A stretch of 56,029 nucleotides of DNA from Psammoneis japonica. Lineage: Eukaryota. The notes beneath the pieces were generated by a model that saw only the letters and a list, made by a program, of their open reading frames with translations, did no database searches and was not told the origin of the DNA. Position numbers and translations under genes: made by a program. Of this stretch, positions 7,998 to 46,868 are shown in pieces; the first letter of the stretch is position 1, and every line of letters begins with the position of its first letter. The stretch covers positions 868,001-924,029 of the forward strand of contig QPGO01000010.1 of NCBI GenBank assembly GCA_008632985.1. The letters run 5' to 3'.

Positions 7998-9860
7998 GTG
8001 TTCGGTTTTGAGGGTGTGTGAGGATAAAGAATCTCAGATGCAAGTGTGACAGTTTCATCATTGTAAAGCAGAACAACACCATTGGCGACATCTCAGTGTT
8101 GCAGCCATTTTATTTTATTCTAAGATAGAACCAGTCATTTTGAGCAGTGAAATTTTGTCAACATTTCATCTTTAACTCTGCTTGGGCATGTCAAATCACA
8201 TGACAACTGGGCACACATTGAACTTTGACGCCACTGTTTCAATCCCATTGTTTCATTCACCCAAGCATCCCACACAGGTCGACAAATCAGTCGATCTTTG
8301 AAATGGCCGATCGCACAAAAAAATCACGTGCGAAGTCAGTTCCCCCGATTTTTCTTGTGCAAATGACAGAGTTAGAATGCTGTTCTTTTTTGGCATGAGC
8401 TCTTTGTGCAATGAATGATGCACACATTCTTTCAAAGCAGTCAGATTCGGTGAAAGAAACAGTGGAACAGTCTCTCAAATGCACCAGAATGACAACAACG
8501 AGCAGACAGCTGTCAGTTTCACTCCAAAAATGCCGCTTTCGAGACAGCGCTTTTCTTGTGCGCACCCTTCAACCAATGAGAATGACGGCTGGCTTTTCAA
8601 AATGAACATGTCTGTGGAAAGAAGAAACGAAAAATCGGGGGAAAGTCCAGTCAGATTTGCTTGCACAAAAAGCACGGCGACGGAAAAGGGACAGATGAAA
8701 TGTCTCACCTCTGCATGCGCGTTTCTCACCTGGGATGAAAACACATCGGGTGATCGTGGCAACAAACAACAACAAACAACATTCAACAGCAACAACACGA
8801 TGACAACACTGAGTGCAAAGGCCGAGAACATTTTGCTCACGTTGGAGGGAGATGCTTCCAATGGATGCATCTCTGTGCAACTCCGCGTGACTCCAGCACT
8901 TTTGATTTGTGTTGCACCCACAATTTGAGGTCACACACAAAATGTGTTGAAGAACAACAAACATTTGATGTCAGTGAAATCCAAGCAGTCGGAGCACAGT
9001 GCCTTGCCTGTTGAATGTCTGAGCCTGTGTTCAGTGCAGCAGAAGTGTGCAAGTGCATTGTGCCAATCATTCGAAAATGTCGCAAGAGTCGCAGTTGGCA
9101 TTTTGCCCAAAGAAAAACACCAAATCATGCAGAAATGTGCACAATGTCATGCAAGAGGATGATCAGAGCTGGTAACTTTTCGGGAACTCAATTAAAATGT
9201 TATCTGACCAAAGGCATTTTGATTTACATGGTGAAGAGCAATGCCTTTGGTCAGATGACATTTCAATTGATTTCCCGAGAAGTTGACATTGGAATACGGA
9301 AGGTCGGACAGACTGACAATAATTGTTTTTGGCACTCTTCTACACAATTTCTACGTAATGACTCTGAGAGCCGTAATGATTCTACTACTAGCTAGTGGGG
9401 GCCTACGGTAGCTCTAGAGTAGAGGTACCGCAAGGTAGGGCCCTACCGCATGAAAAAACAGCAGCCGACCATGGACAAACCAATGACACCATGTGATTGA
9501 CTGACAGAAACTGACCAGAGCACATTATCAGTGATAGTAAATTTTATGCCTGTCTTAATCATTGTAGCATTTTATTTAAATCAATTGATTGCATACAAAA
9601 CCCCCAACGACTGAATTTCGCGATAGGAAACTTGATCTTAGAAACGACAAATTAACGCTTTAATAAATAATTGCGTCGAAAAGCGTTACACGAGAAAAAA
9701 ACACGCAAGAGGCACGCGGAGTGAGCGAGCCCCCTTTTCCCGCTCAAATCGCCTCGATCTCTCCCGCAGTAGAAAATCATCTCACTTTTTTTCTTTGCTG
9801 GGTCGACCAAGCTCCTTTCGTACATTTTTTTGTAAAGCAGTAAAGAAAAGTTTGTTCAAC

Positions 9861-11517
9861 ATGAGTGGTAAGTCTCTATCTCTCGTACGGAACTTGTTCT
9901 TTTCCTCTGCGTTGTTTGCTCATTCGCTCGTTCCTCCTTACAGAGAAATCGGACTTGCACAAAGCTCTCAGCATCTTCAAGATGTTCTACTCCACCGTTC
10001 TCCTTGTGTTCTCGCTGGTGATCGTTATGGGCTTGATCTTCACAAGGCAGACGGCGTGGTCCGAGCAATACCATCCTGCTCTTGCCTTTATTATCCTTTG
10101 GGTGATGTTGATTTGGCTCTCGTTCGTCGAGGGCGGACAGGCTTCGTTGGTTGGACTTCACCCGATTGACCGTGAGCTCTACAAGGACACCCACCCGATC
10201 GCTTACAAGGGCAATGCCATGACCCAACAGGGAGATAACCTCGATCGCTACCTTATGGGCCGTCAGTTCATGGTCATCTTTATCGTTTTCCTCATCAACA
10301 AGTGTGGAGCCCCCATCGAAGGTGCTGAACTCTGGGGATTGCCTAAGTGGATTGTCGACATCTTCCTTGTCACCGGATTCGCCATGATCCTCTTTACGGC
10401 ACAGGTCGGGCAGTTGCAGTCGCAGGTCAACGCATCGCTCTGTATGCTTGACTACTTCAACGATTATGCAAACCTCTTCACGCTCTACACTGCCAGGGCG
10501 ATTGAATTCACTGGTCTCATGCACTTCTCCTACTTTATCCAGATTTGTGTTGGATACCTTGCTGGCAAGCCCATCGAATCCAAGGAGCCTCCGCGCAGCA
10601 CCGGTCAATCTCTTTTCTTCTGGTTCCGTGTCCTTGTCTCGTTTGTCGTCCTCGGCTTTGCCTTGGCAGTCACCCTATCTGCTCTTTTCCAAGGACAAAC
10701 CACCATGTGGGACGGTGTTCCCGAGGCAGTTGCCGTGATTCTTTTCTTCCTCCTCATGTCTGTCGTTGGTATGCTCGAAGGTATGCAGATTGCCTTCTTT
10801 GCCGTCGCCAAGCTTACCAAGGACGAGCGTGGAAGAGCCAAGTGTGCCAAGATGACTTGCGACCTCCTCTACAAGGGCAGGGGACACAACCTTCCCAATT
10901 TCATGATTGGCCGTCAGCTCAGTGTCGTGTCTTGCTTCTTCATTATCTCTCGTGTCACCACTGTCTCGATGGACGAGGGCAAGGGCAACCTGTGGGGTGT
11001 TAGCGATGGACTCCAAGAACTCTTTGAAACTGGTTTCCTTGGTGCCACCATTACTACCATTCTCGGATCCATCTCGTGGCAGCTTGTCGCGTCTGCCTTT
11101 CCCATTGCCTTTTTGTCAAACCCCATCACCTACCTGTTCCTCCGCATCTGTCTATTTTTGGAGGCCACCGGTATTTGCTCTGGAGCATGGTTCCTTGCCA
11201 AGATTGACAAGAAGGTCCGAGGCTTTAAGCGTGACGAAGTTTACATTGGCACTGCTGAGGAACGTGCTGCGCGCAAGGGCGGCAAAGAAGACGAAGAAGA
11301 AAGTGTCGAGGCTGGCCATTTGTACCCGGCTGTTCCACTCTTGCCCAAGGACGTAGAATACAATGACCTCTCTCTCGATCAAATCGAAGAACTCGAGGGC
11401 GAGATTGATGAACACATGAAGGAACTGCAGGAGCGCAAAGCCGGTTTGTCACTGCAGAAACAAAAGCTGATGAATCCTGACGGTTCAAGCGGCACTGCTG
11501 ACATTGAAGAACCCTAA
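9861..11517 (+). CDS. SIT: Diatom silicon (silicic acid) transporter, 2 exons (9861-9867, 9944-11517), ~526 aa
   Basis: Polytopic membrane protein with the SIT signature motifs EGGQ, GRQ, EGMQ and GRQ, the CMLD motif, and an acidic C-terminal coiled coil (LSLDQIEELEGEIDEHMKELQERK). ATG AGT G|GTAAGT...TTACAG|AG AAA splices in frame to MSEKSDLHK. Stop TAA at 11515-11517. Confidence 0.97.
9868..9943 (+). other. 76-nt GT-AG spliceosomal intron of SIT (copy B equivalent 35379-35454)
   Basis: GTAAGT donor, pyrimidine-rich body, branch-like GCTCAT and TTACAG acceptor. Removing it joins the only nearby ATG to the long ORF in frame. Confidence 0.85.
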
Positions 11518-11987
11518 GAGGGGATTCCCATCTATAATATCTAGGCCCCACACATATGGCGCCCTTTCGATGTTGGTAGTATTTGCCTTTGTTCATAACA
11601 CAATGGCACAACATTTGCGTAATCCACCCGAATAAAATAATTTGACATTGTTTTGGGACACTTTTTATTTTACTAGTGCCATGGTCTTCATTTATCATCG
11701 GCCAGGAGAAGAAACAAGTAGGCCCTTGTGGTGTTGGGAGCTAGTAAAGATACGTCCTACTGTAGTTTCGCCACCGGACCGGTTTAGCGCAGCAGATTTG
11801 ACACAAGCACCCTAAGGGTTCCCATCTATATCTAGGCCCCGCACTTTCTATTTTACTAGTGCCGTGGTTTTCATTTATTATCGGCCAGGAGAAGAAACAA
11901 GTAGGCCCTTGTGGTGTTGGGAGCTAGTAAAGATACGTCCTACTGTAGTTTCGCCACCGGACCGGTTTATCGCAGCAGATTTGACAC
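11511..11987 (+). repeat. Local direct duplication of the SIT 3' end and downstream sequence (~11661-11805 repeated at ~11844-11987; ~11511-11553 echoed at ~11809-11843). Also present in copy B
   Basis: TTTTACTAGTGCC...GCCAGGAGAAGAAACAAGTAGGCCC...GCAGATTTGACAC occurs twice, and ACCCTAAG..TTCCCATCTATA..CTAGGCCCC occurs twice. Confidence 0.9.
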
Positions 11988-12660
11988 CGTGGTTCGAAGT
12001 AGATTACAATTCGGTGATTCATTCCAAAGAGCAGAAACAATTCAGAAATCTCCAGTACTGTCGACTCAGGCGACTGTAAAATCGGTTGGAGCCAATTCTT
12101 GTCTATTGTGAATTGTCTCATCCTGACTCGCTGTCTCGACGCTACTTGCTTGGGCACGATTTGCGCTTAGAACCAAAGATATTGATGGAACAGTTGCTGC
12201 TCCATTTGATCCGGTCACCTTCTTTATAGGTACTTTGATATGGTGATCCTCTCGTCGTGGACGTTTGGACTCAGTGAAAACTTGAGACTTACCCCAATTT
12301 TGCTTTGTCCATATGTGTTGTCACAGAGGAGGCAAGTCGGGATCTTCTTCAGTTTCTATCTCAAAGCTGTCCCAAAGGATGTGTTGTGCTGCTGTACGTC
12401 CCAATAATGGGGTCTGACCCTTTCGGAAGAGTGATGGAACAGAATCTCCTTGTTTCGGATGAATCGTGCCTCCTTCGAACACGAACACTCCACGATCAGC
12501 TGGCAAAGATGGTGGCTTGCGGTTTTGACCACGCCGTTGGATGTGACAAAGTGGAGTGCTTATTAATACGCGACCGTGGTGACGCCGGAGCAACGCCGTC
12601 GAGCCAATCAATGTGACTTTTTAGACGAAAAGGCATTATTGTCTGCTTGTATGCTGCAAG
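11988..12660 (+). pseudogene. Leucine carboxyl methyltransferase (LCMT1/PPM1-like) remnant, 5'-truncated and frameshifted
   Basis: LCMT-like motifs in the expected order across different frames: WFEVDY..VIHSK, YLLGHDLR, Y.PIMGSDPFGRVMEQNL, TL..QL..M...GF..A.GCD and HYCLLV. They are interrupted by stops and frameshifts. Confidence 0.7.
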
Positions 12661-12900
12661 TCACACAACAGTTTCGGACGAGCTTTCACAAAAGTTGGGC
12701 CTTCATCTCCCATTGGTTTTGTTGACGGTCGGTGTCACCTGGCTACCACGCCGTGACTGGCTTTCAATCTCTAATGAAGACATAGCTAGAGTAGGCTCGA
12801 GTAGACTAACTTTCATTCCTGCGATAAAATCTTCAGATCTACGCATCTTCGGGCTTTTCTTGCTTACCGGAAAGCTTGTAACCGAATCGATTCTGATGTC

Positions 12901-13782
12901 TTAGTCGTTGCGTTCTAGTACGCTCCTCTCGTACAAAGGTGATGGTGGAAAGAAGTTGGGAGAGGGGAGGAATAGTCTGTACAGATCCATGTTGTTTGCC
13001 ACAAAGAATGGCTCCAGACCTTGACGCACGCTCCTACGACGTATTGATGCATCCACCTGCTGCTCCTTGGTACAGCTCGGGACGGTGACTTCCCGGTGAG
13101 ATGCGGCACTTAAACTCATGTCGTGATTGATTACAGAGGACGGATAGGCAGAAGGCAAGCCAACCGCACATTCTGTTAGGGTAAATTCAACCGCACGAAG
13201 AAAATGTAGAATTTTGGAGGACTTTGTACAAAGTTTCTGCCGGAGGTAATGTCCATGTGGTCTTCGTCGTGGGATCGACATCGAGTTGGATGTGTCTGTG
13301 CAAGAGGAAGCAACGAGACTGTTATGGATTCTTCGAGTACCATACCTAAAGCTACCAGTGCAGATTGATCAAACGATCAAAACAATGGGTGGGCCGCGTG
13401 ATTTCGCTGTGCCGCCTTCCTCGTTGGTTTCTGTTGAACGTTGCGCTTTCCCCGCGAGATTCAGGAACAGATACTTAGACCTCTTCTGTTCTTTCAAAAA
13501 GTTGTCAAAAAGGCGATACGTTTCGTCGTCACTTCCATAAGTCCACCTGCCCTCTTGCCACGGAAGTCGTTTCGGTTTTCTGGTTTTGGGCGAATTCTCG
13601 TCAGCAGAAACATCATTTTTGGCCAAGAAACGATGCTTCAACCAAGTGCAGTTGCTCTGATATTGTAAACGAGGTCGTCGAATCAATGACCAAGCCTGCT
13701 CTTCTGCACGTTCTGAGATGAACTTGAGGTGTGATGGTCGCAACGGAGAGTCGGATAAAAAAAAGGTGATTATTTGAATCAT
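12901..13782 (-). pseudogene. Possible degenerate or spliced gene of unknown function (duplicate at 38410-39291)
   Basis: Protein-like segments (RLPWQEGRWTYGSDDETYRLFDNFLKEQKRSKYLFLNL) in normal-composition DNA, broken into 137-aa and 126-aa ORFs. No family recognised. Confidence 0.3.
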
Positions 13783-14095
13783 TGTTTGATGTTTCGGGGA
13801 CCGGCATTGATTCTATAAGACCTCTTCAGAAAGGTGGTTCGTCGGATTACTGTTGCTTTCTCCAGAGTAAGTACAGTGAGTGGCCCACCCAACAAGGGAG
13901 CTGATCTCCTTCACTGGCATCGACTGAAAGCACAATCCTCGCCAGCCCAAGAAGAATCAGCGAATGTGTTCCAATCTACATAGTCTCTCTTTGTATCGCT
14001 CAGTTTTTTGTCCGTATCCTCACTATCTTCAGGAGCCCGAGAAGCGACATTTCGTGGTTTGTTGGGTCTGTTAGAGTTTCTTTCATAAAAAAAAG

Positions 14096-15007
14096 TCAAC
14101 TATCCATGGTACATATCCTTTCACAGTAGCGTTCAACTAATCCCTTACAGATTGATGGCGGTTCAAAATCGAAAAAGCAGTAGTCTTGCTTCACATGTTT
14201 GCAGATTCTCAAAATAACCGCGGGACTGACATCGTGATGGAGATTATGAAATCTCATCTTTTTCCGATTTCTCAAGGACACGTTTCTTACAAGAGACTCA
14301 TTCCAGTGCATGCGATGGATTTGGAAAAACATCTTTATATCCTTCATCTCACCAACAAATTTGATCCGATCCAGGTAGCGGAGTGGCTCGGTTCTATGAA
14401 TCAAATATTCTATTTGAGGCGCTGTGTGGCGAAAGCAAATGTTTCCTCGCGCCTTGTTTAGGAATTCCAAAACTGATTGGTTGGAGTAGGCAAAATGAAA
14501 TGATGTTGGCTGCTGGCGAAGGGCGCATTCCTTGAATCCAGCGAAAAAGTGATCTATTGGATCTCGAACAAACGTAAAGAGGTCATGGGTTGCGTACACG
14601 GGATTTTCCCTCGACAAAACGAAGGAAGATAGATTGCACTGACGAGATATAGTTGTCCCTCCTGCCTTGAGGATGTGGATGTAAGCCCATCTATCATTGC
14701 AGTCACAAAGGTGCTCACTGTTGAAGTCCCGTCTTGTTTGGACGGCATACTTTCGAATGCAGGGAAGATTTCGATTCCATGACTTGCTTTGCAAGAAAAA
14801 GGCATTACGAGTTGTAGTGTTTGCCGATAAAACCAGGTCGCCCGTCATGCCAACGACAGATGATTCTAGCTCGGAGGAAGCCGCACCATTGTTTTTGTCT
14901 TTGTCCGCCTCCGCAAAGATCACGCCAAACACTACGAGATACTGCACGGTTACAAATGCTAGGATGAGCAGGGGAATAACTGATTTTCCTTTAGCGGCAC
15001 CAAACAT
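14096..15007 (-). CDS. Type II membrane (Golgi-type) sulfotransferase-family protein, ~303 aa
   Basis: Likely start ATG at 15007 (MFGAAKGK). Signal anchor VIPLLILAFVTVQYLVVFGVIFA, 5'-PSB-like YIHILKAGGTTI, 3'-PB-like FTFVRDPIDHF and C-terminal DYCFFDF. Confidence 0.85.
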   Translation of the reverse strand: MFGAAKGKSVIPLLILAFVTVQYLVVFGVIFAEADKDKNNGAASSELESSVVGMTGDLVLSANTTTRNAFFLQSKSWNRNLPCIRKYAVQTRRDFNSEHLCDCNDRWAYIHILKAGGTTISRQCNLSSFVLSRENPVYATHDLFTFVRDPIDHFFAGFKECALRQQPTSFHFAYSNQSVLEFLNKARGNICFRHTAPQIEYLIHRTEPLRYLDRIKFVGEMKDIKMFFQIHRMHWNESLVRNVSLRNRKKMRFHNLHHDVSPAVILRICKHVKQDYCFFDFEPPSICKGLVERYCERICTMDS

Positions 15008-18000
15008 TTTCTTCTCCAACGAAAGAAGCGGCACCAAAGGAACGACGCTTTCGGTACAGCATACAGAAGAAATGATGCTTTGCTTTGTTCTTTCTATCAC
15101 AAGAGTCTCTATTTCAAACGGAATTTTGCCAACAGCTCGGTTGGCAAAAATGACCGTCAGAATAGGTTGGGAACCTGTCCCGAAAATCTCGATTCAAACA
15201 GACGCAAAGACAAAAGACCTCCTACTCGAGTTGCACGCAACAAACTGCGGCGCAGCACAATGATGAGTGCCGCCGGTGTCACCGTAGGCATTTTGATATC
15301 TCAACGAGTCTTTCACCGATTTTCCAGTTTCTTGTTTCATTCTTAGCGATAATTTCACAATCTGTCCGATTGGTTTTGGTCCCATTGTGTGTCAATTTCA
15401 AGTTTCAAGGTCAGAAAGAATGACACCCAAAATGACCCTTCAACCGCAGCAACGATGACCGATGAGGTGGCTGGACCTGGACGAGATGGGCGCTCGTGCT
15501 ATGCCAGTGTGTTGGACAGATCGATTAGATGTAGATGCGATGCATGTGGATGCATGAGATGTTCTGGTCCCTTCTCTGGCTGAAAATCAGCATGTTCCTC
15601 CTCCCCCTCCTGTGCAGACGAATGAGGGTGTGGCCACCTCCCATGAGGAGACCAGGGGGCGTGACTGAAACAGAGCTTGGTCTGCTTGGCACACAGCTCT
15701 TCTCAAATCACGATGTTGCAAGGCCATGCTGACACATCTCTTTGGCTTTGGACTTTAAAAATCAATGAAAAAACAAGCAGTTTTGCTTGTCAGAAAGTGT
15801 GCAAGAGCACCACAAAATTTGTGGCACAAGTTGTGGAGAGAACAAGTTGTGGAGAGCTTCTTCATGAAACACCTTCGCTGGGCTGGGAAGCACAGGGCCA
15901 TGGAAACAGTCTCTGGATGAGTTGAAAGTTGCCAGAAGTGCAGCTCTGTCATGGCAGAGTCTGTTGCAAAGATCATCAATGTTCTGAGCATCCCCCCTCC
16001 CTTCTCACTCAGGCCTGGCAGCTCCAATTTGTTGCGCTTTCAGATTCTGTCTGTCTGCAGGGTCTGGCACCTGCAAAAAGATTTCCAAATTTCTCTTCAT
16101 CTTCAGAGCAGAGTCAAGCCAAGTGCTTTCTGTGCTGGCAATGATGGGCTTGGCATGCCCCATGTGCCAGCAATGACAGCACATTTTTCTTTGAAGTGTG
16201 CGCCAATGAAGCCAAGGAGCCAACTTGCACCAAGTGGTGCCAAGGTGGTGCAGCGACCCCTTTGAAGAAGGCTTTTTCCCAGCATCTTCATGTTTGGGGC
16301 TGTTTGAGATGATTTTGTCATGAATGACAGCACTCGCCAACTGTGGGCAGCATTGTGTTTGGAAGTGAGTGGATTGAGCAGTTGATGCACACCTGTGCAG
16401 ATGGACTTTGCTTTGCCAACATCATTGTGCTCCCCAACAAAAGCTGCTTGCTCCTCCCACTTGTCCAAGAATCTTCTCACTGCACAATGATGCCACACTT
16501 GGCAAATTGCTTGAAGTGGAGCTTTGCACGGTGGTCGTCATCCATCTTCTGGATCAAACAGGTCAAGTTGAAAGCAACATTTGTGCCCTTCTGAAGGGCA
16601 GAACAAACAAGTTTTGAACCTGTCATCCATGGAAAAAATGTTGAGAATGTGTGGGTTGGCTCTGGCATGAGAGCATCAGACAACAGGCTGGGTTGTGAGA
16701 ATCACAGCACTCATTGCACTGAACATGTGCACTGCTGTGAGCAATGTTCTCTGTTGACAAATCTTTTTCTTCAGCTGCAGGAGGACATTTGAGTGCCTGT
16801 GGTGACCCCAGCAACTGCTGCTCCTCTCCTGCCCACTGTTCCTCAATCCTCAAGCAAGTCTCCCTGCTGTCATGAACAAATTTGGACACCAAGCCTTGCA
16901 ATGTGCTGACCTCCTCAAACTTGGTCCTCCAGTCCTCTGTTTCCAGCACCGTTTTCTCAAAACATGATGAGTTTGGTGCACAATTCATGTTGGCACCAAA
17001 GTCAACCCACATCAGTCCTCTGGAGACAATTTGTCTGCACAGCATTGATGTTGCAACCATCCGCAGCTTCTGCACTTGCCCGGTTCTTTCATGTGCTTGC
17101 AACCTGGCATGAGCATGATGATCTCTTGCAGACACATTGGTCATTGCTGGGCACACTTTCCTAAAACCATGCATTGCCCACTGCGCATCATGGTCTTGAA
17201 AATCAGCACTGCTTGAGCAAGACAAGGGCAGGACAACTTGGTCAGTTTGGGTGGCTGCCAGATGCTTTGTGCAAAGTCCAGCAGCATGTTGCCTCTTCCT
17301 TTCTTCATCAACAACTCCCAGCCCCAATGTTTGCAAACACAACCCAAGTCTTTGCAGCTCCTTGCAACATCAGCAATGTCTTCTCAAAACCCAGAACCTT
17401 GTTGCAGCAGGGGTGCACCACCTTTTGGCAGTGAAGATGTGTCGCCCAGTTTGCAGAAAAGGACAAACTCAGCACTTTGACACCTGGGTGTCTTTGCCTT
17501 TTTGACTTTGGTGTCAGAGTCCCTGACTGAACACTGTCAACAAAGACTCCAACACCTTGACCAACACAGTGTGCCATGACAGCAGCAGCATTTGCATCAA
17601 TGGCATCACACACAAACTCTTCTTGTGTCATCTCACAACAAGTGTCAACAGCTGGCACTGTGCTCTGAAAACTCCACAGCTTGGCTCAAATTCTCCAAAT
17701 GAAATGACTCAACAAAGCAAGCTGCAGTTTTCTTGTAGAAAGTTTTTGTTCCAAAGAGGTGTGATTTTCCTTCAAGGTTGTGCCACTTGTTGTTGTGTTG
17801 CCCAACTTGACAAGGTCAGATGGCAGCAGCTTGCTGCGGTCATTTGTGCCATGAAGACTCATTGTGTGCCATGGTGGTGGCTGGTGTTGACTTGAACAAC
17901 AACCACTCATTAACTCTAAAATCAACTTTGCTTGCTTGGGAGTTTGCTTGGTGTTGCCAAGTGTGTTCCCTGCAGCAGCGGGTGTGGTGGTGGAAGGGCC

Positions 18001-18365
18001 CACTTTGACTTCAGCAGCTGCTTCTGCTGCTTCTTGTGTGGGTTTGGCAAAGTGTGTGCCCCCATCATTTTCTGTTGCATTGGTTGCACACCTGTGTTGT
18101 TGCACAACAGCTGCCTGCACTCCAGAGAATGAGCCAGGTCAGTGACCAAATTTGGTGAGCAGGTGAGCAGCAGCACTTTCTCTGGCAGCTCCAATTTGCT
18201 GATGCAAAAGACTGAGTTCAGCCACCAAAAACTGAGTGTGCTGATTTGCACTTGAGCTGCATGATGATGATTGCTCTTCAGACAATGGGCCAAGTCAGTG
18301 ACCAAACTTTGTGCATGGGTGTGCAACAGCATTTTCTCCAGCAGCTCCAACAGGTTGGTGCAGTG

Positions 18366-18537
18366 TGTCACGGTCAGCTGTAGAGCTCGTAGGACAGACG
18401 GACAGACGGACGGATGGACAGACGGAGCTCATTCGCACTGACTCAGAGAGATGATGTCGAAGATTCTCTGACGTAGCTAGCTCATAGACCACAGAGTAGT
18501 CGCAAGCCTCTTTAGCTCACAACATCTACACAAGACA
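18366..18537 (+). mobile_element. 172-bp LTR of a Ty1/Copia-type retrotransposon (copy B 43866-44037)
   Basis: Termini TGTC...GACA form an inverted pair. It is followed directly by GGTTGTGTAGCCC, which resembles the copia half-tRNA-Met PBS GGTTATG(G/A)GCCC with a TA->TG change, and then by a gag-like ORF. Confidence 0.7.
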
Positions 18538-18601
18538 GGTTGTGTAGCCCTCGTTGCCTCTGCAACCTTTTTGACAACAAACACCACCAACACCCACCAC
18601 C

Positions 18602-19757
18602 ATGGCACCACCCTCCAGCACCAAACGCACTGGCAAGTCCAAATCGGGCAAGGGCTCTTCTGAATCGCAGAAGCCCAGCGCCACCGCGACGCCCTCGCCA
18701 TCTCGCAATGCAGGGTTGGCCGGCATGGAGCGCGTCCCTCGAAAGAAGGGTGGGAAAGTCGACACGGCTCTCGATGAACTCATCGAACATGCGCCCAAAA
18801 AGGCGCCGCGTGATGACGATGTCGACCATCAGAACCCTGATGGCAACGCACTTAAGGACGATGACGTGCGTGACAATGACGGCATTGCAAAACTCATGTC
18901 AGTGACGAACTCGGATGATGTGGACGTTTCTGACGATGACAGTGTCTCGTCTGACAAGTCCGACAAGTCCAACGCGGAAACCCCCGCAAGCGCACCAAAA
19001 AGCACTTGTCTGAGCGCAAGCACGAGAGGCTTGCCGCCCGCATTGACGAAGTCACTGCGGCTGCATGCGCTGACAAGCGCATTGCACAACCAGCTAAACC
19101 GCTAGAAGACAAATTGACTGTGTCCCCTGAGTCATTCTTTGGCTTCCTCTTTTGTCTTGAGGAACGTCTTCAGAGCTCCCCTGTGTGGGCGAAAGTCATG
19201 AAGCTCAACAACGGCATGTCTTTGACAAAAAACTTTGCCAAAGTGGAAGCGCATGTTTTCGAATTCCCAGCTGATGTGCCATGGGGTGTTGAAACCGACG
19301 AGGTCATCGCCAAGAAATCCGATGGCCAGACATCCATGCATTTCGCGCAACGTGCGCTCAAGGCCCTGCTTGTTGCCTCGTGTGACAAAGAGCTGCGTCA
19401 GGCGATTGCGTCCGATGAAAATGTCATGGATCATCTCCATGAGGATGGCGCAATGTGCTTCTGCCACGGCTTCAAGCAGCTGTTCCCGTCGCCCGAGATG
19501 TGTGTTAGCGGCATCCAGACAAAATTGTCTGAGGCAGGTTTCTCTCATTGACGATTGCGATGGCAATGTCAACGCGCACATGCATGAGTTCAGGCAGCAC
19601 CTCCGCCTGGTTCACAAGCATGATGACATGCTCGAGCACACTCTCGTCGAGAAAGCCTTCAACGAACTCCAAACCGCCGCATGCAAGCCATTCGCAGCCA
19701 AGATGGCCGAGCATGAGACCGATTGGATGCGCAAGAAACACGTTAAATGGACCGTCA
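18602..19757 (+). mobile_element. Frameshifted, 3'-truncated gag-like ORF of the LTR element
   Basis: ATG at 18602 shortly after the PBS. Basic/acidic low-complexity N-terminus followed by a helical domain with IDDCDGNVNAHMHEFRQ (IDDYDGNV... after reversing TA loss). No pol or 3' LTR seen. Confidence 0.6.
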
Positions 19758-22700
19758 CAGCAAATCAAATTTTTGCTGGTCTTCACCCAAGCACACAACA
19801 GACAAAGCACACAATGAATCAAGTGGAGCAAAGCCAAGCAACACCAAGTCTTCAAAGTGCAAAATGTGTCATGTCTGGAGAAGCTTGGGCTTGAAAACAA
19901 AACCTTGATCTTGACTTGGCTGACTTGAGAACTCAACTTGGTTTTTGGCTTGAGGCTTGGTCCGTGTTGCAGGTCAGAAGCTTTTCCACACCATGCCATC
20001 CCACACACAGATCACATTTTGTCCAGTCATTTTTGCCAAACAGCTGATGATCAATGATTGCCACACATGCCAGAAACTGCAATCTCTGGCAGGTGATGAC
20101 AAAACTGTCTGGTGCTGAATCCTGCATGGGCACAATCATGTGTGACAAACCCAGTTCTTCCTTGAGCCAGCAAGGTGTGGTGGGTGCAGGCTGTGGTTTT
20201 GGTGCTGGGGCAGGGCCAGTCACAGGAGCAGGTGTTGTTGCTGTTGGCTGGTGATGGGTTGGGGTGTGGGAAGAGGAGATGTGGGGTGCGACATTGGCAG
20301 AATGTTGCCAGGGATGCTGCAGGGATTTGGTTTGCCTCCAAGTGATTTCCAAAGCCAGCGGTGCCAGGTCATCCAGATTGACAAGAGACTGGACAGCTGA
20401 CTTGATGCTGAGGTGGCCTCAATGATGCACAGACTTGCTGCTGATCTTTTGGGTGAAGGCTTGCTTCTGAGGATGTTGGATCTGGACCAACACGTTGTGG
20501 TGTGTCAGTTGGTGTGTGTTGCTCTGTGCCACACATGCAGTGAGTGAGCTGATCAGATGGAACCCAAGAGTTTGCCAATGTTCTGGAGATGAGTTGAAGG
20601 GCTGGTCATGTGCAATGTGTTGGGATGAGCTGACAACTTCTCCTCCTCTGTTTTTGTTGTCTGCAATCTGCACTCAGTGACTCCAAGCAAGGCAATGAAA
20701 ACTTTGGAAAGTCAGCAGGTTTGGCCTTTTGGCAAGGGCAGCTCCCAGCCTTTCCAAACCTCATGGCAAAGCTTCTTGCACAAAACAGCAGTGTTTTCCC
20801 AACTGCCAACTTGTGGCGTCCTCTCTCTGCTGCTTTTTTGCAGATCTTGCCTGCAGCCATTCTCAGCAACAGGCTCCAGAGCAGGACACCAAGTTCTGTT
20901 GGGTGAGCAGCCTTCTCCCATGATGGTGGATGGCATGAGAGGCAAGGTCTCAGCTGGTGAGATGCCTGGAGCTGCTGTGTGGGTGCAGACACCTGCTGGC
21001 CATGTTCCAGCTCTGGGCAGGACCTCATGCTGCTGGACTGTGGCACGAATGTTCTTTGTTGTGCTTCACATGTCATGCAATCACACTTTGGTGGTGTTTT
21101 GCATCATTTTGCAGCACAATTGTTGGGCAATCCATGCAACAATTTTCATCCATGCAACAATTTTCAACACATTTTTACACAAAGCTGCTCTTGAAAGTCT
21201 GCAGAGTGGTGCAGTGCAGCTGGATTTTCAAAAATTGTGAGTGCAAGGAATTGTGATTGCACTGCAAACTTGGCCATTTGTTTGGACGTCAAAGACAAAC
21301 ATGGTTGTTGCTCAGCACACAAGCTGCAGAGCTTGTGCATGGAATTTGGGGGGGGGGGGGGGGGGGGGGAGGGCAGAGCACATTGCTGCAAAGGCATGTT
21401 GGGTTGGGAGCTGGAGGAGGCAACAAAAGTCAAGCAGGCAGGCCAGTGCAATTGTGAGCAGCTTGGGGTGTGTGGCTTGTTGCAGGGTGAGATGCAAGCA
21501 GTCCTGGAGGCTCCAGAGTTGGCTGTCATGTGAGTTGGTGGTTTTGCATGGCAAACATTGGTGGCAGAGTTGTTGGGCTGGGTGTTGGATCAGTCCCTGG
21601 AGGAAGACTTGGCTGCAGACTCAAACTTGACTGTGGACTTGGGTTGGGAGCAGGAGGAGGCAAAGGAGGCAGGACAGTCTGAGTTGGACTGGCATCAGGT
21701 TTGGTGTGCTCTTGGGTGTGGGCAGCAGGAGACACCAAGGAGGCAGATCAGGTGGGCCTGCAGATGAAGCAAGGTGTTGCAGCCTGGGTGTCATGTGATT
21801 TGATTGATGTGTGGATGAAGGTGTGCCAGATGTTGGACAGCTCAAAGTTTCAGATGGAGAAGTTGAGGGCAACATTGAAGGCATGAGAAGCAGAAATTGC
21901 TTGGTCCTGCTGAAGGCACATTGTCAGGGCTGAACAAGAACTCAGCACTGAAGACAGAGCAGCCAAGGCACTGTCAAGAAAGGGATGAAAGACAGAGCAG
22001 ATTGCTCAGTTTGGCTGAAAAAGTGCTGTTTTAAAGATGGGCCAAAGGTGATGCAGGCTTGGTGAAGGAGGGCCAGCCATTGAATCTGGTGTGCATGAGA
22101 TGGGTTGCACTTTGCCTGGGGCTGGGACCAGCCAGAGAGAGGAATGCTTGCCATTGTCAAAATGCTGAAATGGCACATGGATCCAATCTTCTTAGTTGCT
22201 GCAAAACCTTGCACATGCTGGCTGCAAAATGTTTGCTTGCAAAGCACTCAATGCCAAGCAGCGCGCAGTGCACTGGCACTTGACATTCAAATGATGTGGG
22301 CCTGAGCTGTGGCATCAACAGCTGTCACAACAATTTGGTTGCTGGCACACTGTCATCTCAAGCTTGCTCTTTGCTTGGACCACAAATGAACAATCCTGCA
22401 GCAATGGAAATGCTGGAAGTGCTGCTGTGTGTCCTCTTCACAAGGCCTTCATGGCAGATTCACAAGACACTTGTTCAGTCACAAATCAAACAGCACAAGG
22501 AGGACACAAGCCTGCTGCAGAAAGAGCTTGAGTGTTGGGCAAGTGCTCCATGTGCTTTTTCATGGGGGGGGGGGGGGAGAAATGTCAACAAGACAGCTGG
22601 CTCTCACACCACAAGGACAAAGTTGTTGTTCCAGCATTGCTGTGCAGGCAGAAGCGGGTGACTTGCTGGTGTCTTCCCCAGCTGTGCCATCCCAGAGAGA

Positions 22701-23110
22701 CACAACCTGAAATGTTGGTTGCCCAACACTTTTTCACTGGTGCTGCACACCAGCTGCAGCATGTTTCACAAAAGGGAAAATTGGGGTTGTGGGAAGTTGC
22801 CAGGGAAAAGGTGGCTAAAGTTTCCCCACAGGGACCCCATGCTGTGTGCAGAGACATGACAGGGGAGCACAGCACGGTCAAGGAAAAAGGAAAAAAAACT
22901 GCACGTTTGATTGACTCCACAAAAAGCTGGTTTGAGGTCACTGGCACATCTGCAAAGTGCGCTGACATTGTGTCCAGTGTTGTTGAGCAACAAGCATGGC
23001 CACACAGATGTGGACAACCAAGAAATGAAATCTTCAACAGAGGAGCTGATCTTTTCATGATCTTTTTCAGTCAAACAACACAAAAGGACTTGCCTTCAAA
23101 AGAAACCCTC

Positions 23111-26100
23111 TCCAGCTGTGCAGGCAGTTCTTTACAAAACCTGCAGGGTTTGTGCTGGAACTTGTGTGGAATTTGATGAGGGTGCAGCTCCATTGTGACG
23201 AGGACAAGTGGAAATGCACAGTCCACTTTAGCACATGTTAGACAAGGATGCCTGAGGAGGAATCCTCTTCATTTCCTTCATTCCAGTCAAATGCTCCTGA
23301 TTTGGCATGCCGCGCCACAAGAAAAGGCCATGCACATCACACTTTGATGCATCTTGCCATGGCACACATCATGGGGCAGATGTGTTTTTCATGGGTGATC
23401 TCTTTCCATCATTGTCGTGAAGAGGTTGATGCATTGGTTTGGTCTCCTGGGGTGCTTTGGTTGCTGCGCATGCTGCAAATGGTTGCATGCCTTGACTCGC
23501 AACTCAAATGCGGCACAGTGCGGGTGACATCTGAATGGTCGACAACTTTGCCGCAGTGAGCTCTTTCTACATTTTCTCATTTTATGCCAGTTGAATGCTC
23601 ACCAAAGGTTGTTGTTGCATTTTGTCACAGCTTGCAAGGTTGATTGATTGTCTTGTGCGGTTGATTGTCGCTTCTGCAACATTGGCAACTTTTTCACCGC
23701 GTTTGCACCACCAAAGTGCATCCGTTTGGGAGCTTTGTGCTTCATCCCACTGCACATCCTGTGGTGCAACCATTGTTGACATTAAGATGGACTTGTGATG
23801 CACTTGACATCCTTCTTGGGGTTTTGGTTGGTGCACAACAATGGCACGTCATTTTTTGGGCATCACAATTTTCTGAAAAGTGCACGCCGATTGGAACAAA
23901 ATGACGTGATGGAGCCTCGGGGATGCTCCTGACGTTGGTGTTTGTCGTGCAGTTTTGTCATTGTCCAAAGAAGACAAACCAGTGAGTGTGTTGCAGTCAA
24001 CTGGCTTTTTGACCCTTTTTGACAAAATTTGCATGCCTCACAAGCCTCTTTTTGTGAGTCTGGTCAATGTGCACAGGTGTCTGGTCTACAGCGGCCCCTT
24101 TCTTCCTGCTCTGCAATGGTGTCATCTTTGCTGTCTTCATGTTGCTTGTGCTGTCCATGTTGTTTTGGGAGAACTTGGCAGTGTGCCTTCCAGTCTGGGC
24201 TTTGCACTTGGTAAAATGGAGAAAGGGAGGAGGGAGAATGGTTTTGCTGGTCTCCTCATGAATGCAACGAACCGCTGGTGACACTTGGGGCCATGAAATT
24301 TGGCCGGGTGACTCACAAGTCTTTTGACATCATTTGTTGATTTGGGAAATTTGGTTTCTGAAACTTTCAGTCTGGAGAGGAAATGGATGGAATGGTGTGG
24401 GACCTGCTGAAGATTTGTGGCAGAGCACTTGGCAGGCATGCTGCTGTGCATTGACTGTGGAGTTAGTCAGCTGTGGGGGTGTGCTTTTCTGCATTTTCTG
24501 TGAGCAATGAAGCAGCAGATGTTGTGTTTAGACAGCCCATGGCGTGTCACTGTTCTTTAGAGTGTTTGCTCCACCGGCACTGGAGAGCAGATCAAGAGCT
24601 GCGGCGCCAATCATCTGGTCATTGTGCACGCACATTGAACGCATTGCAGAGCCTGCAAATCTTCTCTCTCCTCCTCCTCCTTTTCTCTTTTTTTTTTTCT
24701 TCACAAACTTGGAGCTGCCAGGAGCCACCTGCATGACCAGACATGTGCCAATTTCTGGCAATCATCCAGCTGTGCAGGCAGCTCTTTACAAAACCTGTGG
24801 GGCTCATGCTGGAACTTGTGTGGGATTTGACAAGGGTGCTGTTCCATTTTGACGAGGACAAGCAGAAATGCATGGTCCACTTTAGCACATGTTTGACAAG
24901 GATGCCTGAGGAGGAATCCTCTTCATTTCCTTTGTTCCACTCAAATGCTCCTGATTTGGCATGCCGCACCACAAGAAATGGCCACACACATCACATTTTG
25001 ATGCATCTTGCCATGGCACACATCATGGGGCAGACGTGTTTTTCATGAGTGATCTCTTTCTGTCATTGTCACAAAGAGGCTGGTTGGTTTGGTCTCCTGG
25101 GGTGCTTTGGTTGCTGCACAACATGCTGCAAATGGTTGCGTGCCTCGACTCGCAACTCAAAAATGCAGTGCGGTGTGGGCAACATCTGAATGGTCGACAA
25201 CATTCCCATGGCAAGTTCTTTCTACATTTGCTCATTTCATGCCATTTGAATGCTCGCTGAAGATTGTCACTGCATTTTGTCACAGCTTGTGAGGTCGATT
25301 GATTGTCTTGTGCGGCCGATTGTCACTTCTGCAACATTGGCAACTTTTTCACATTGTTTGCACCACCAAAGCGCATCTGTGTGTGGGAGCCTTGTGCTTC
25401 ATCCCACTGCACATCCTGTGGTGCAACTGTCTTTGACATCAAGACAGGCTTGTGATGCACTTGATGTCCTTCTTGGGGTCTTGGTTGGCACACAATGATG
25501 GCATGTCATTTTTTGGGCATCACAATGTGCGTGCACGCCGATTGGAACAAAATGACGTGATGGAGCCTCGGGGACACTCCTGATGTTGGTGTTTGTCATG
25601 CAGTCTTGTCATTGTCCAAAGAAGACAAACCAGCAAGTGTGCTGCAATCAGCTGGCTTTTTGACCCTTTTTGTCAAAATTTGCATGCCTCATGAGCCTTT
25701 TTTGTGAGTCTGGTTGATGTGCGCAGGTGTCTGGTCTACAGTGGCCCTTTCTTCCTGCTCTGCAATGGTGTCATCTTCGCTGTCTGTCATGTTTTGCTGT
25801 CCATGTTATTTTGGGAGAATTTGGCAGTGTGCCTTCCAGTCTGGGCTTTGCACTTGGTAAAATGGAGAAAGGGAGGAGGGAGGATGGTTTGGCCAGTCTC
25901 CTTGCAAATGCAACAAACTGCTGGTGACACTTGGGGCCATAAAATTTGGCCGGGTGACTCACAAGTCTTTTGACATTGTTTGTTGATTTGGGAAATTGGT
26001 CTCTGAAATTTCAGTCTAGAGGGGAAATGGACAGAACAGTGTGGGACCTGCTGAAGATTTGTGGCAAAGCATTTGGTGGGCATGCTGTTGCATGTCGACT

Positions 26101-26389
26101 GTGGAGTTAGTCAGCTGTGGGTGTGTGCTTTTTCTGCATTTTTCATGAGCAGCAAAGCAGCAGACATTGCATTTAGATGGCCCATGGCACGTCACTGTTC
26201 TTTAGACTGTTTGCTCTGCTGGCACTGGAGAGCAGATCAAGAGCTGCAGCGCCAATCATCTGGTCATCGTGCATGTGCATTGAACACATTGCAGAGCCTG
26301 TGAATCTTCTCTCTCCTCCTCTTTTTCCTCTGCTTTTTTTTTCACAAACTTGGAGCCACCTGCATGACCAGACACATGCCAAATTTCTG
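23111..26389. repeat. Older diverged tandem duplication, 2 x ~1.65 kb (units start at 23111 and 24765; copy B 48611-51887)
   Basis: Both units run from TCCAGCTGTGCAGGCAG.TCTTTACAAAACCTG to GGAGCCACCTGCATGACCAGACA, with many transition differences. Confidence 0.92.
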
Positions 26390-27200
26390 ATGTGCAGGGA
26401 GGAGCTGATTGAAAAATTGCAGTGTTGCCCATGTTGTGCTGCCGGTGCTCCTGGTGTTCCATTTTGTTGTTGTGTCCATGCCTCATTGCTGTCATCTCTT
26501 CACAAGACCTGTTTCATCAACTGTCTTTGCCACATGTGCCACATGTGACCGTGTGTTGTGCCACCCAGGTGCTTCCTCTGGCAAGCAATGGATGTCCATG
26601 GGGAAACACCATGTTGTTCTTTTTGGGCCATGTGGTGCAGTGCTGCTTCTGCACAATGATGATTGCACTCACAACCTGGTTCAATTTCAACATGGATCTT
26701 CACATCATGGTGGAATGCCGTGGTTCGCGACAAGAATGACAGCAAGAATTTGGCTGCTGACTGCCCAAAACCACTCATTTCAACAACAATGCACCATGTG
26801 CTGGTTCTCCATCATCCCCTGAGATCGACAGTGCCATGACACAGGTCCTCACTCCACCATTGCCGTCAAGCCAAAGCACGCAAAACGAAAAAGACGATCT
26901 TCCATCAACAATGCAGACGCAAAAACAGGCCAAACAATGTCATTTCTACACCATGCACAATTGCTTGTGGGTTGATTGATGAGTTGGAGGCCTGTCAGGG
27001 TGGTGGCAATGTGTTGCCATGTCAGCAGCGGTGGCATTTTGGTCATTGTGGTGTGTTTTGTGCCCATTTGTGTGAACTCTGTGACGGTGTGCATTCCGAC
27101 CGCACAAACAAAAAACATGTGGAAGCAGTGCCATTTTGTGTGGCCCAAAAAGAACAACATGGTGTTTCCCCGTGGACATTTGTCACTTGCTGGAGGGAGC

Positions 27201-29790
27201 ATGGGAGTCGCCTCAGCAGGGAAACTCTTGCATCATCTGGAGAAAGTCTCTCTTGACAAGAATCTCACCTGCGTTCTCTGTTTTGGGGCACGTCAGGTTG
27301 GTTGCAGTGTCTCCATCATTGCTTTTGATGCAAACTGGCTCTCCCAAAAGCTGCCATTAAAAAAGAAGGGTCCCATGTCATGAGTTGTTGATCTCATCAA
27401 GACAAGTTTCTTCTGATTGAAATCCATGCAATCGCTGTTGCTGATGGCATGAAGCATCACCATTCAAAGAAAGCAACCCCCAAAAAAATTGCCAAGACTG
27501 AACAAGCCAAGCTTGACTGTCCAGTGCTTTGAAAGAAAATTTTTGAGAAAGCAGAGTGGACTCATCCACCGTCTGTTGCTCTGCAAGAGCTCTCTGAGTT
27601 GAAGAAAGAGATGACATGTCTTGAAAAGAAGGTGACTGCAAAAGAGAGCTGCGCTCAAGAAGAGATTCCTTTGGATTTTGTCAACAACTTGGAGTTTGAG
27701 GTCAACAAGCTCAATGAGGACAGCAAGATTTAAGCACATGCCAAGCCATTGGCAGCAAACACACAGGTGGATTGTGTCATTTGCAAGCAGGCTGCATGCC
27801 AAGAGATTGATGGCGCCATCGCAAATGGCTCGGATTTTTGTGTTGCAGCCAGGAAGGACATGTTGCTCATCAAGAATTTCACGTTTGGGCACAGAAAGGG
27901 TTTGTCAGCTCTTCAGAACATGATGTTGGCAGCTTCAGTGGAATCTGTCTTGGCGGATGCAGTTCAAGATGGCATTGGGAAGGACAACACGAGTTGCACC
28001 ACAAAATCCAAAACACCACTTTTCCAAAAGGAAGACCCAATGATGAGGGCAATGATTGCTGTTGAAATTGGGTGCAACACTCTGCCTGGCGGGGTCCCAA
28101 GTGTTGGCACCAAAAGCATTGAAGAGTTCTTCAGTGCCAAGCCCAACGCGTCTGTGGATGATCTTGCGTTGCACTGCGAGAGCAAGTCATCCATGAACCC
28201 AACTGTGCTTTGTGCATTTGGTTTGGCCATGATCTGTGAGCCTGGCAACACATGTGATGAGCCGGTGTTGCAAAAGACACACTCATTCATGGCCCTCCAA
28301 CAGCTCTCCTGGATCATCTTAGAAAGTTTGCTGCTGGGACAGACATTGTGGTAGATGATTCTGTTGGCAGAAGTGACTGCTGCAGTTGTTGTGGCATTGG
28401 TCATGTGTTTGCCACCAGCAAGGACTTCAAATTGTGTTTGGAATGCAAGTCAACACTTTGCAAGCTTTGTGTCATGGATGCAAAGGAGGCAGACTCTGCA
28501 AGAGTCAATGTGCCACACTGCATCTCATGTCTGAGTGCTGCTGTGGGTGTTGACACCAAGGCGGAAGAGTCTCAGATGTCAACATCTAGGATGCATGAGG
28601 AACTTCTGTCTGCAAATGTGCGCGACATTGCCAACCTGTCCATCAATGAAGTGGAAGAGCTGCATGATGCAACAGTCAATGGAAAACACAATGAGATTGA
28701 TGGTTTGGATGACACTCAGTTTCCGGAGTGGCCTTCAAGTGAGACAAACAATTCATTGCATCTTCTAAAGAAAGTGCCACTAGATTTTGGTGATGGAGCA
28801 CTGTTCCTTCAAGCTGAGGAACTGGAGGACAAAGAGATCTGCAGTGTGGTTTGCATTCTCTCTGAGCTTTTGAAGTTCTCTGGCTTGCTGGACAAGAGCA
28901 AAAGCATGCATGAGCAAGCTGTTCCTGACATTGTTGCTCATTTTGCTCGAGAATCAAGATGAGACAGTGGTGAGCAGCTGATGAAGCACACAAATTGGCA
29001 CACTGCTGATCCTTGGTCTCAATCACTCGTGACAGCAACGGGTGCCATTTGTTGTGATTGCAACCTTGATGTGGCCTGCACTCTCATTGATGGAATGGCG
29101 TGGGCATCTGTGAAGGATGAGACACATGAAACAAGAGTGCACTTTTCTGCTGAAAGGCTCATTTGCTGCAGCTGCACATGCAAAGCTGGTTCACAGGGAT
29201 TGGAGAAGGTCATCTGTGTTCATGCTCTCTCCATCAAACAGAAATTGTGTCATTTGCTTGTTGATGGTCCAGCTGAACATGCGGTGTGTGAGTTGTCCAC
29301 TTGGTGGCAGGCGCCCAGTCCAGCTCTTAATGCACAAGTGGCAACTGATCTTCAAACTGACATTCTTTACCTGCTCAGCGTGGTTGATGCCTCCAAATGG
29401 ACTGGCTTGGCAGATGATGTTGCTGTTGGCACCATCTTGTCAAAACACTCCGTCAGAACTGAGAATGCAAAAGCACCGCCCATGCTGCTTCCAGTCAACA
29501 CCGCATTCCAGCCACTCCACACCTGCCTTTTTCAAAATCTGGCACAGAAATTCATCAATGAGATCAAGGGTGCAATGGATGCTGTTCATTCAGTTGATCA
29601 ATCTGCTTCTGTTTCTGCAGACCCATGCAATGCTTCCACTGAAGCTCCAGACTGCAAGCACATCATTGCTGTGAAACTAACTTTGTGCAACATTCTTGAG
29701 CGGCATGAGAAAGCAGGCAACTTCCTCAACTCCAGTTCAAAAAAGAAAACAGCTGACTGCATTGGCAACCACCTGTCTGCCTTTTGAGCA
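27201..29790 (+). pseudogene. Degenerate XPG/FEN1-like nuclease + Cys-rich (PHD-like) finger + SWIM zinc-finger protein
   Basis: Motifs in the expected order: MGV (27201), IIAFDANWL, IAVADG...HSKKAT, QVDCVI...EIDGAIANGSDF, IGCNTLPGGVPSVGTKS (H3TH-like), C..C...LC..C, and ASVKDETH...CSCTCKAG....ICVH (SWIM). Several stops and frameshifts. Confidence 0.75.
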
Positions 29791-30002
29791 TCAACTGGGG
29801 CCCCCAAACTTGTGACCAGGGACAGTGTCCAAATGTGCAACAAGCTGTCAATGGCATTGTTGGACGTGTGCAAAAGAGGATGTGTGGACCAGAATCCTGT
29901 GATTTGCAAGGTCAACTCACATGCCAGTAAAAAGACTGCCACAGAAAATGATGCAGATTCAATTGATGTGCAACACGAATCCAAACCGCTGGCCAAGAAG
30001 CA

Positions 30003-33400: not shown

Positions 33401-33508
33401 GCTGAGTGTGTCAACAAGGCTTGCCAGCCAACATTTTTGCAAAATTTGCTTGTTTTTGTGCAGGTGCACTGTCCAAGCAATGGCGCTGGGAGTGTGCAGG
33501 AGAGCTGA

Positions 33509-34824: not shown

Positions 34825-34934
34825 CCGCATGAAAAAACAGCAGCCGACCATGGACAAAACAATGACACCATGATGTGATTGACTGACAGAAACCGACAAG
34901 AGCACATTGTCAGTGACACACAGCAAATTTTATG
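34825..34934 (+). repeat. Extra ~110-bp diverged copy of the duplication's first sequence, located at the junction
   Basis: CCGCATGAAAAAACAGCAGCCGACCATGGAC...AAATTTTATG directly precedes the full copy at 34954. Confidence 0.9.
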
Positions 34935-46853: not shown

Positions 46854-46868
46854 NNNNNNNNNNNNNNN
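46854..46868. other. 15-N gap within a poly-G run (copy A has ~23 G at 21347-21369)
   Basis: Seen directly. Confidence 0.95.

Follow-up and report, generated by a model that had tools for sequence, protein, structure and literature searches.

Here we describe a 56,029-nt stretch of DNA (the window) in which a duplication of about 25.5 kb carries both a gene island and a domain that has lost almost all of its TA dinucleotides and many of its CG dinucleotides. Our subject is positions 18380..19757 on the + strand, a frameshifted fragment of a repeated gene within that domain. An earlier note on this DNA had held that differences between the two copies, A and B, cluster in transposable element (TE) DNA of this kind, match a TA/CG signature and reflect mutagenesis that is recent, localised and still going on. 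We find that the differences do cluster in the TA-poor domain, and that exchanges between CG and TG or CA dominate them. The reading we favour, and consider probable though far from settled, combines two processes—an older mutator directed at TpA and a decay of CpG—of which only the CpG decay clearly marks the time since duplication.

Self-BLAST aligned 9446-30530 with 34954-56029 at 99.578% identity over 21,098 columns, with 54 mismatches including 15 N. Copy B starts where the unit beginning at 9446 ends, at an offset of 25,508 from copy A, which marks the arrangement, judged from the sequence, as a head-to-tail duplication; 21.1 kb of it can be compared in the window. Copy A, the tandem unit, occupies 9446..34953, with its 9446-30530 portion present twice in the window; copy B, at 34954..56029, runs off the end of the window. 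At its left edge, the duplicated unit has a stretch of about 90 bases that occurs in three copies of 92% identity (9445-9534, 34824-34916 and 34954-35042), two of them side by side immediately ahead of copy B, and this triple stretch may mark how the duplication arose.

Taken whole, the window has observed-to-expected (o/e) ratios of 0.17 for TA, 0.41 for CG, 1.69 for CA and 1.62 for TG, at 49% G+C. Per-kilobase ratios pick out two gene islands, at 9.2-15.7 kb and 35.0-41.3 kb. Island kilobases have TA o/e 0.47-0.74 and CG o/e 0.77-0.97 in copy A (0.20 and 0.60 in the kilobase at the island edge), and TA o/e 0.35-0.77 and CG o/e 0.73-1.03 in copy B (lower in the edge kilobase); in non-island DNA, TA o/e is 0.00-0.18 (often 0-5 TA per kb), CG o/e 0.03-0.78, and CA and TG each have o/e 1.5-2.5. 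The boundary in copy A lies at about 15350-15760: the island (9446..15760) holds 312 CG and 227 TA, and the gene-free, TA- and CG-poor domain that follows it (15761..30530, partly multi-copy; counterpart in copy B at about 41266-56029) holds 56-60 TA, 251 CG, 1,535 CA and 1,792 TG. We call this domain repeat-derived on two grounds only, the multi-copy depth of assembled contigs and one internal repeat. Pfam searches of 147 frames of at least 90 aa (139, which are all such frames in the TA-poor DNA, and 8 from the island) found no transposon domain, and the sole non-island matches in the scanned frames, DUF4551 and COP23, both fell below the Pfam cut-offs.

Alignment of the copies by MAFFT gave 44 substitutions and 31 indels before local realignment, in which five substitutions at 16588-16596 became two 1-bp run-length indels; the final tally was 39 substitutions and 32 indels. 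One substitution lies in the 6,310 aligned bases of the island vs 38 in 14,738 TA-poor bases (Fisher p = 2.7e-5), and none of the island's 539 CG and TA sites (312 CG and 227 TA) is affected. The clustering claimed in the earlier note is therefore sound, but its labels "TE" for the domain and "gag" for the region of our fragment find no backing in Pfam. The 38 substitutions of the TA-poor domain comprise 21 exchanges between CG and TG or CA (the CG class), 3 between TA and TG or CA (the TA class), 8 other transitions and 6 transversions. The fragment at 18380-19757 carries 12 of the 39 substitutions—nine of the CG class, two of the TA class and one transversion—in agreement with the CG-class differences claimed for the so-called gag region; a second cluster that had been pointed out, at 15894-16119, holds seven substitutions in 226 bases. 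This second cluster belongs to an odd block, 15761..18379, with 15 substitutions and six deletions in copy B. Ten of these substitutions belong to neither class (10 in 2,613 bases, vs 4 in 12,125 elsewhere in the domain; p = 1.5e-5).

The CG class carries the recent signal. Across the TA-poor domain, the possible transitions number 502 that destroy CG, 3,328 that create CG, 112 that destroy TA, 3,327 that create TA and 7,501 others; a context-free null gives the CG class a share of 0.26, vs 21 of the 32 transitions seen (p = 3e-6). Expressed per position, there are 21 events on 502 CG bases (4.2%) vs 8 on 7,501 other transition positions. Counted as sites, 21 of about 262 CG in the domain (about 8%) differ between the copies, vs none of the 312 in the island (p = 4e-8). 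The rate per CG is uniform within the domain, with 9 of 101 sites in our fragment and 12 of 161 in the remainder (p = 0.8), and the differences therefore follow the CG targets that remain. For CG, then, the earlier claims that mutagenesis is recent and localised, and most visible where targets are left, stand.

For TA the same claim of recency does not stand. The letter pairs quoted in the earlier note are all correct: CTG/CTA at 19057, TGC/TAC (Cys/Tyr) at 19463, CAG/TAG at 30415 and TG/CA at 17191-92 (copy A/copy B in each case). Three of these are the TA-class sites: copy B has TA at all of them, whereas copy A has TG at 19056..19057 (Ala in copy A, Thr in copy B) and 19462..19463, and CA at 30415..30416. 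The fourth, 17191..17192, is a double difference at adjacent positions, with TG in copy A and CA in copy B. Three TA-class differences among 11 non-CpG transitions are what context-free change would give (null share 0.31, p = 1.0), because TG and CA outnumber TA by 55:1 in the TA-poor domain. At the background rate (8 per 7,501) the 3,327 TG and CA positions alone should yield 3.5 new TA, and seen from that side the TA-class rate, 3 in 3,327, equals background. The per-site comparison proposed in the earlier note does give an excess for TA bases (4 of 120 differ, vs 34 of 7,404 other A/T bases; p = 0.003), but a context-free null would pass it too, since a difference without polarity is counted against whichever state is rare.

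Nor do the directions agree among these differences, three in number among 60 TA sites, of which one is polarised to loss and one weakly to gain. TA is probably the older state at 19463, where the homologue described below has Trp, aromatic like Tyr, and four contigs carry the TA letter. At 19057 the homologue has Ala beside a gap, as copy A does, leaning to a gain of TA; 30415 is not polarised. Internal-repeat units were also considered for polarising six A/B differences and rejected as biased, the outgroup unit itself having lost most of its CG. The TA sites private to one copy are all four in copy B, and one of them, at 22281, is a T/A transversion where the contig has the TT of copy A. We also considered CHG methylation for the CAG/TAG sites: there is one CTG/TTG match, and 4 of the 11 non-CpG transitions are CHG-type, no clear excess over a rough guess of about a quarter, so that the idea is neither supported nor excluded.

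The erasure of TA itself is well supported by sequence comparison: TA was not natively rare here but was converted to TG or CA. The argument has three parts: a distant homologue with Tyr where the window has Cys or His, paralogues that keep TA letters, and double swaps within the internal repeat. The homologue was found with the 325-aa frame of copy B (44075-45049), which has one true distant relative, P0005, of 583 aa (E = 1.2e-12 in a HMMER all-against-all search of 1.8 billion proteins; pairwise E = 8e-20). A tblastn search widens the match to 19009-19759 in copy A and 44237-45260 in copy B, with a frameshift near 19530 common to both. At the five aligned Tyr of P0005 the window has Cys at three and His at one. 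A second HMMER match, P0006, was rejected as a low-complexity protein with scattered sub-threshold Pfam matches. No relative of the 325-aa frame came from a word-indexed search or from a metagenome scan (250 pattern matches), a search with P0005 as query returned only itself, and when the repeat domain was compared with the whole window by sensitive self-BLAST, no paralogue of the fragment appeared.

Paralogues do appear among contigs that are at least 90% alike. Seven of the listed places have TA in paralogue contigs and TG or CA in the window (18492, 18503, 19334, 19382, 19395, 19441 and 19463; at 19334 the TA is accompanied by a second adjacent change), and the reverse case is absent among the 40 differences listed. 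At six of the seven places listed, both copies already have TG or CA. Just upstream of the gene fragment, 18381-18545 keeps nine TA in 165 bases, nearly all in TAG or CTA context, and paralogue contigs have two more TA in this stretch, at 18492 and 18503.

The internal repeat gives the rate. It is an older tandem repeat at 23111..26389, with two units of about 1.65 kb and 87.6% identity, and between its units there are 42 adjacent TG/CA double swaps vs 1.8 expected by column shuffling (maximum 7 in 500 shuffles). With 11 shared CG and 32 single CG exchanges with TG or CA, the loss of CG per unit is 0.59 from about 66 ancestral CG; CG loss accounts for about 12 of the double swaps, and the remainder, roughly 30, point to about 60 TA that the two units lost independently. 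Eight shared and five single TA are left. On these sequence-based estimates, TA was lost roughly twice as fast as CG in the internal repeat.

This history bears on the timing. Together, the historic rate ratio and the 8% CG divergence of the copies predict about nine TA losses among about 58 TA, and at most three are seen (Poisson P = 0.02); the fragment at 18380-19757, moreover, keeps its CG (o/e about 0.7-0.8) but has nearly no TA left (o/e 0.07-0.18). The TpA erasure was therefore fast, early and largely over before the 25-kb duplication, or else it spares CTA and TAG sites. The half-sites of the surviving TA speak to the second option: in the TA-poor domain (n = 112) they are TAT 4 (3.6%), TAC 20 (18%), TAG 43 (38%) and TAA 45 (40%), vs TAT 114 (25%), TAC 125 (27%), TAG 106 (23%) and TAA 109 (24%) in the island (n = 454), and ATAT, ATAC and GTAC do not occur in 15761-30530. 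The eraser seems to prefer TA before a pyrimidine (or after a purine) and to spare CTA/TAG and TTAA, and the surviving sites may simply be poor targets.

We propose that two earlier processes, each turning a palindromic dinucleotide into TG or CA, shaped the repeat-derived part. A TpA-directed A:T to G:C mutator, possibly an adenine deaminase as has been proposed for Bigelowiella, would have removed almost all TA from the repeats in a burst, and CG would have been lost through deamination of 5-methylcytosine in methylated repeats, which is the simplest option. Since the copies separated, CpG decay would have reached about 8% of the CG of the repeat domain and none in the island, TpA erasure would have left at most a slow tail on surviving TA, mostly in CTA or TAG context, and a share of the A/B differences would be assembly noise. 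If A and B are true paralogues, targeting would then follow the domain and not the duplication, because the gene island inside the duplicate is untouched.

Several observations weigh against this reading. On the CpG side, the rate is 39 times that of other transitions domain-wide; in 18380-30530, with a single event as background, the factor is about 200. The CpG excess in mammals is roughly 10-20-fold; since the rate here exceeds that figure, there is room for an enzyme-driven process, which we keep as an option. On the TA side, 19463 is polarised to TA by both the homologue and the four contigs. Two of the three TA-class sites lie in the fragment at 18380-19757, which has 27% of the domain's TA and 7% of its TG and CA (a post hoc likelihood ratio of about 11 for TA loss over gain, from location), and all three are exchanges between CAG and TAG (about 4.5 for loss, from context, also post hoc). 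If the odd block is dropped, a cut chosen after seeing the data, 0.44 TA gains are predicted and three are seen (p = 0.01). On the side of the data, CG-class sites with a single contig letter have CG at six and TG or CA at six, so that the older state is not indicated, and the support for the 39 substitutions comes from contig letters.

The TA-side points are also the strength of the rival that survives best, namely that a single localised mutator continues to attack TA as well as CG in repeat DNA, and that each of the three TA-class differences arose when copy A lost a TA after duplication. We regard this as possible but doubtful. It accounts for the changes at TA sites, which affect 3 of 60 in the repeat domain vs 0 of 227 in the island (p = 0.009), and for the excess at TA bases outside the CpG class (4 of 120, vs 13 of 7,404 other A/T; p = 1e-4); it would put the per-site rate of TA at about 5%, near the 8% of CG, and independent changes on a single palindromic site should leave just such a TG/CA double swap as that at 17191-92. 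However, the TA-class count is no more than context-free change predicts, the historic TA:CG rate ratio calls for about nine losses, the homologue at 19057 matches copy A, the four extra TA sites all lie in copy B and include at 22281 a transversion that such a mutator would not make, and the double swap is, by our estimate from per-site rates, about 10 times likelier to have come from CG than from TA.

A related observation concerns the strands. Within 19758-30530 the + strand has 1,365 TG vs 1,104 CA, and 23111-26389 has 425 vs 308 (p = 2e-5). Over most of 20-27 kb the AT skew is below zero and the GC skew mostly above it. Skews and TG excess together form the pattern expected from a one-strand excess of A->G and C->T. 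We would entertain, only tentatively, that the TpA eraser is still active, aimed by chromatin domain and slow on resistant CTA/TAG sites (about 5% vs 8% for CpG), that the same machinery may drive A->I at TpA and 5mC->T at CpG, and that the TG excess and skews of 19.8-30.5 kb are its strand footprint.

A second rival is that most differences are long-read assembly or polishing artefacts, with substitution errors at methylated CG, so that the pattern reports modification and not mutation; we think this unlikely, though it probably describes some of the data. Read-level support was judged from assembled Logan contigs of one sample, possibly the assembly's own; such contigs drop variants and mostly list one letter per place, and a missing letter is no evidence, also where one contig alone covers the DNA. 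One contig of 3,024 bases has the copy A letter at all 15 substitution and 6 indel places of 15375-18398, and contigs carry copy A letters within 22003-23063; the copy B letter is carried at 18937, 21753, 23188, 23195, 24986, 25372, 26154 and 28168, and both letters are listed at 19463 and 19620. The earlier note had made its case conditional on read support, which was checked here with contigs.

Artefact gains further from the indels, which number 32 against 39 substitutions: 24 of them lie in runs of at least two of the same base, six are in the island, with one inside a transporter gene, and where a copy disagrees with the contig it carries the deletion in 12 of 15 cases (p = 0.035). The depth of the odd-block contig is 3 standard deviations above a seven-point fit of depth on variant density (weak evidence), the sole contigs at 19721 and 27616 differ from both copies, and copy B contains a run of 15 N at 46854..46868. 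Most 1-bp indels do look like assembly noise, as the odd block at 15.8-18.4 kb probably is. Against artefact as the general explanation, the indels ignore the domain (6 island, 26 TA-poor; p = 0.18) whereas the substitutions follow it, and the two distributions differ (p = 0.04). Miscalled methylated CG, moreover, predicts CG in the contigs at every CG-class site, and the 6:6 split seen there fits real two-allele variation instead. Both letters at 19463 and 19620 also speak for real variants, though paralogues could supply them, and in the other contigs depth drops with variant density, as if the reads held both variants (again weak).

Two details of the assembly belong here. The contig mismatches are G>A, losing a CG, at 19721 and A>G, making a CG, at 27616, and represent either strain variation or an assembly error common to both copies. 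The 15-N run has its partner in copy A at about 21356-21370, inside a stretch (21338-21384) that the contig comparison passed over as repeat, and since its length equals the partner stretch exactly it looks like masked bases, not a scaffold gap.

Import of the differences from diverged paralogues, by ectopic gene conversion or by mixing in of paralogue reads, would give an old signature without recent mutation and is improbable: 18.1-19.7 kb and 22.8-26.4 kb do have two to seven times their neighbours' contig depth, with paralogue letters, seven differences do crowd into 15894-16119, and the TA at 19463 and the CG at 18937 and 19620 are also found in four to five contigs, but the densest block (15761-18379) is covered by one contig at single depth with no paralogue seen, the other 14 paralogue letters listed in 18380-19757 (such as those at 19382, 19395 and 19441) were not co-imported, and the per-CG rate is equal in the multi-copy and single-copy parts (9/101 vs 12/161, p = 0.8).

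The gene island identifies the source in outline. A silicon transporter (SIT) frame at 9865..11514 on the + strand of copy A matches Pfam PF03842 (E = 1e-208), on which grounds we take the source to be diatom-like. In copy B (35376-37027) the frame is broken by a 1-bp deletion at 35854, outside any homopolymer; the split marks either a gene copy that has died or an error of the assembly. A 146-base direct repeat of 96.6% identity follows closely on the SIT frame in both copies (11659-11804 and 11842-11987; copy B 37169-37496). The island also holds a sulfotransferase-like frame on the - strand at 14099..15193 (copy B frame 39605-40615) with Met at residue 63. It has no Pfam match and no PDB sequence match; its protein atlas features score 0.93 with 30 of 30 matches to Sulfotransfer_2, which we treat as a lead only. 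That the genes are near-identical between copies, as the earlier note had said, proved correct: SIT shows no substitution and one 1-bp indel (10344 in A, 35854 in B), and in the sulfotransferase-like frame the copies agree throughout from the first Met (Met63) onwards, the substitution at 15013 (residue 61) and a 2-bp indel at 15102 (residue 31) both preceding it.

TA poverty extends beyond the compared copies. The unique flank (1-9172) and the tail of unit A (30531-34953) have TA o/e 0.00-0.13 past the first kilobase (0.29), and their frames of at least 90 aa have no recognisable protein domain. At 7-9 kb, CG o/e is kept at 0.67-0.75 with TA at 0.10-0.13, a state like that of 18380-19757.

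The closest parallel to the TpA erasure is in Bigelowiella natans, in which a TpA-restricted hypermutation of integrated giant-virus and virophage DNA has been described (Mettrop et al., bioRxiv 10.64898/2026.01.13.699255). As far as the accessible part of that preprint goes, the process makes only TpA->TpG/CpA transitions, with long-term loss of TA and gain of CA and TG, is confined to foreign DNA with neighbouring host genes untouched, and is non-constitutive, appearing in some of the lines only (10.64898/2026.01.13.699255). This last point is in keeping with the burst-like timing proposed above. Two of these features recur in our window—the loss of TA with gain of CA and TG, and the restriction to repeat-like DNA, with an island that keeps its 227 TA. 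There are also differences: Bigelowiella is a rhizarian with viral inserts, whereas here the source is a diatom-like stramenopile and the targets are repeats; TA is about half depleted there (Rho 0.45), vs an o/e near 0.05 here; CpG does not occur in the accessible preprint text (0 occurrences), whereas here CG is co-depleted; and mutation-accumulation lines revealed de novo events there, whereas the A/B pair offers at most three unpolarised events. Full-text literature searches found no description of TpA erasure in diatoms.

Decay of CpG in methylated transposons proceeds by deamination of 5-methylcytosine. The likeness is close: exchanges between CG and TG or CA dominate the recent differences, are confined to repeats of reduced CG o/e and scale with the CG left. 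What differs is that the decay acts here beside a TA-erasing process that 5-methylcytosine chemistry cannot explain, and that its rate over other transitions seems above the mammalian range given earlier. Among diatoms, Phaeodactylum transposons are CG-methylated via DNMT5a, according to the part of the source available (PMC9998398). By analogy the repeat domain here is most likely CG-methylated, the only indication in the window being the contrast between domains at CG sites (21 of about 262 vs 0 of 312).

Repeat-induced point mutation (RIP) makes TpA from CpA. The DNA described here resembles a target of RIP in that transition hypermutation has disabled repeats and left a dinucleotide footprint, as in ascomycetes (RIPCAL, PMC2621366, from the part available). 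However, the direction is the opposite, with TpA nearly absent and CpA and TpG in excess, and G+C stays near 48-50%. In addition, the duplicate is more than 99.9% identical in its gene part, with no change at 227 TA or 312 CG; because the duplicated island differs at one of its 6,310 bases, and that one outside CG and TA, duplication as such was not the trigger, always assuming that the copies are genuine paralogues and that a sexual cycle has taken place since they were formed.

What is new here is a constraint on timing, a constraint on targeting and a methodological caution; ongoing mutagenesis of TA is not demonstrated. The caution is twofold—where TG and CA outnumber TA by 55:1, unpolarised differences between TA and TG or CA are uninformative on an ongoing TA mutator, and duplicated stretches of long-read assemblies need read-level checks before their differences count as mutations. 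For the biology, a young 25-kb duplicate in which genes and repeat DNA stand side by side offers a natural experiment on repeat mutation in this genome. It is the domain that sets the recent load of mutations (38 substitutions vs 1), which argues against a RIP-like duplication trigger; if the eraser should prove to be still active, the copy pair would be the first natural rate measurement of the TpA process. The repeats of this diatom-like genome would have been shaped at two tempos, by a TpA erasure that was fast and largely preceded the duplication, and by a CpG decay that is slower and still visible.

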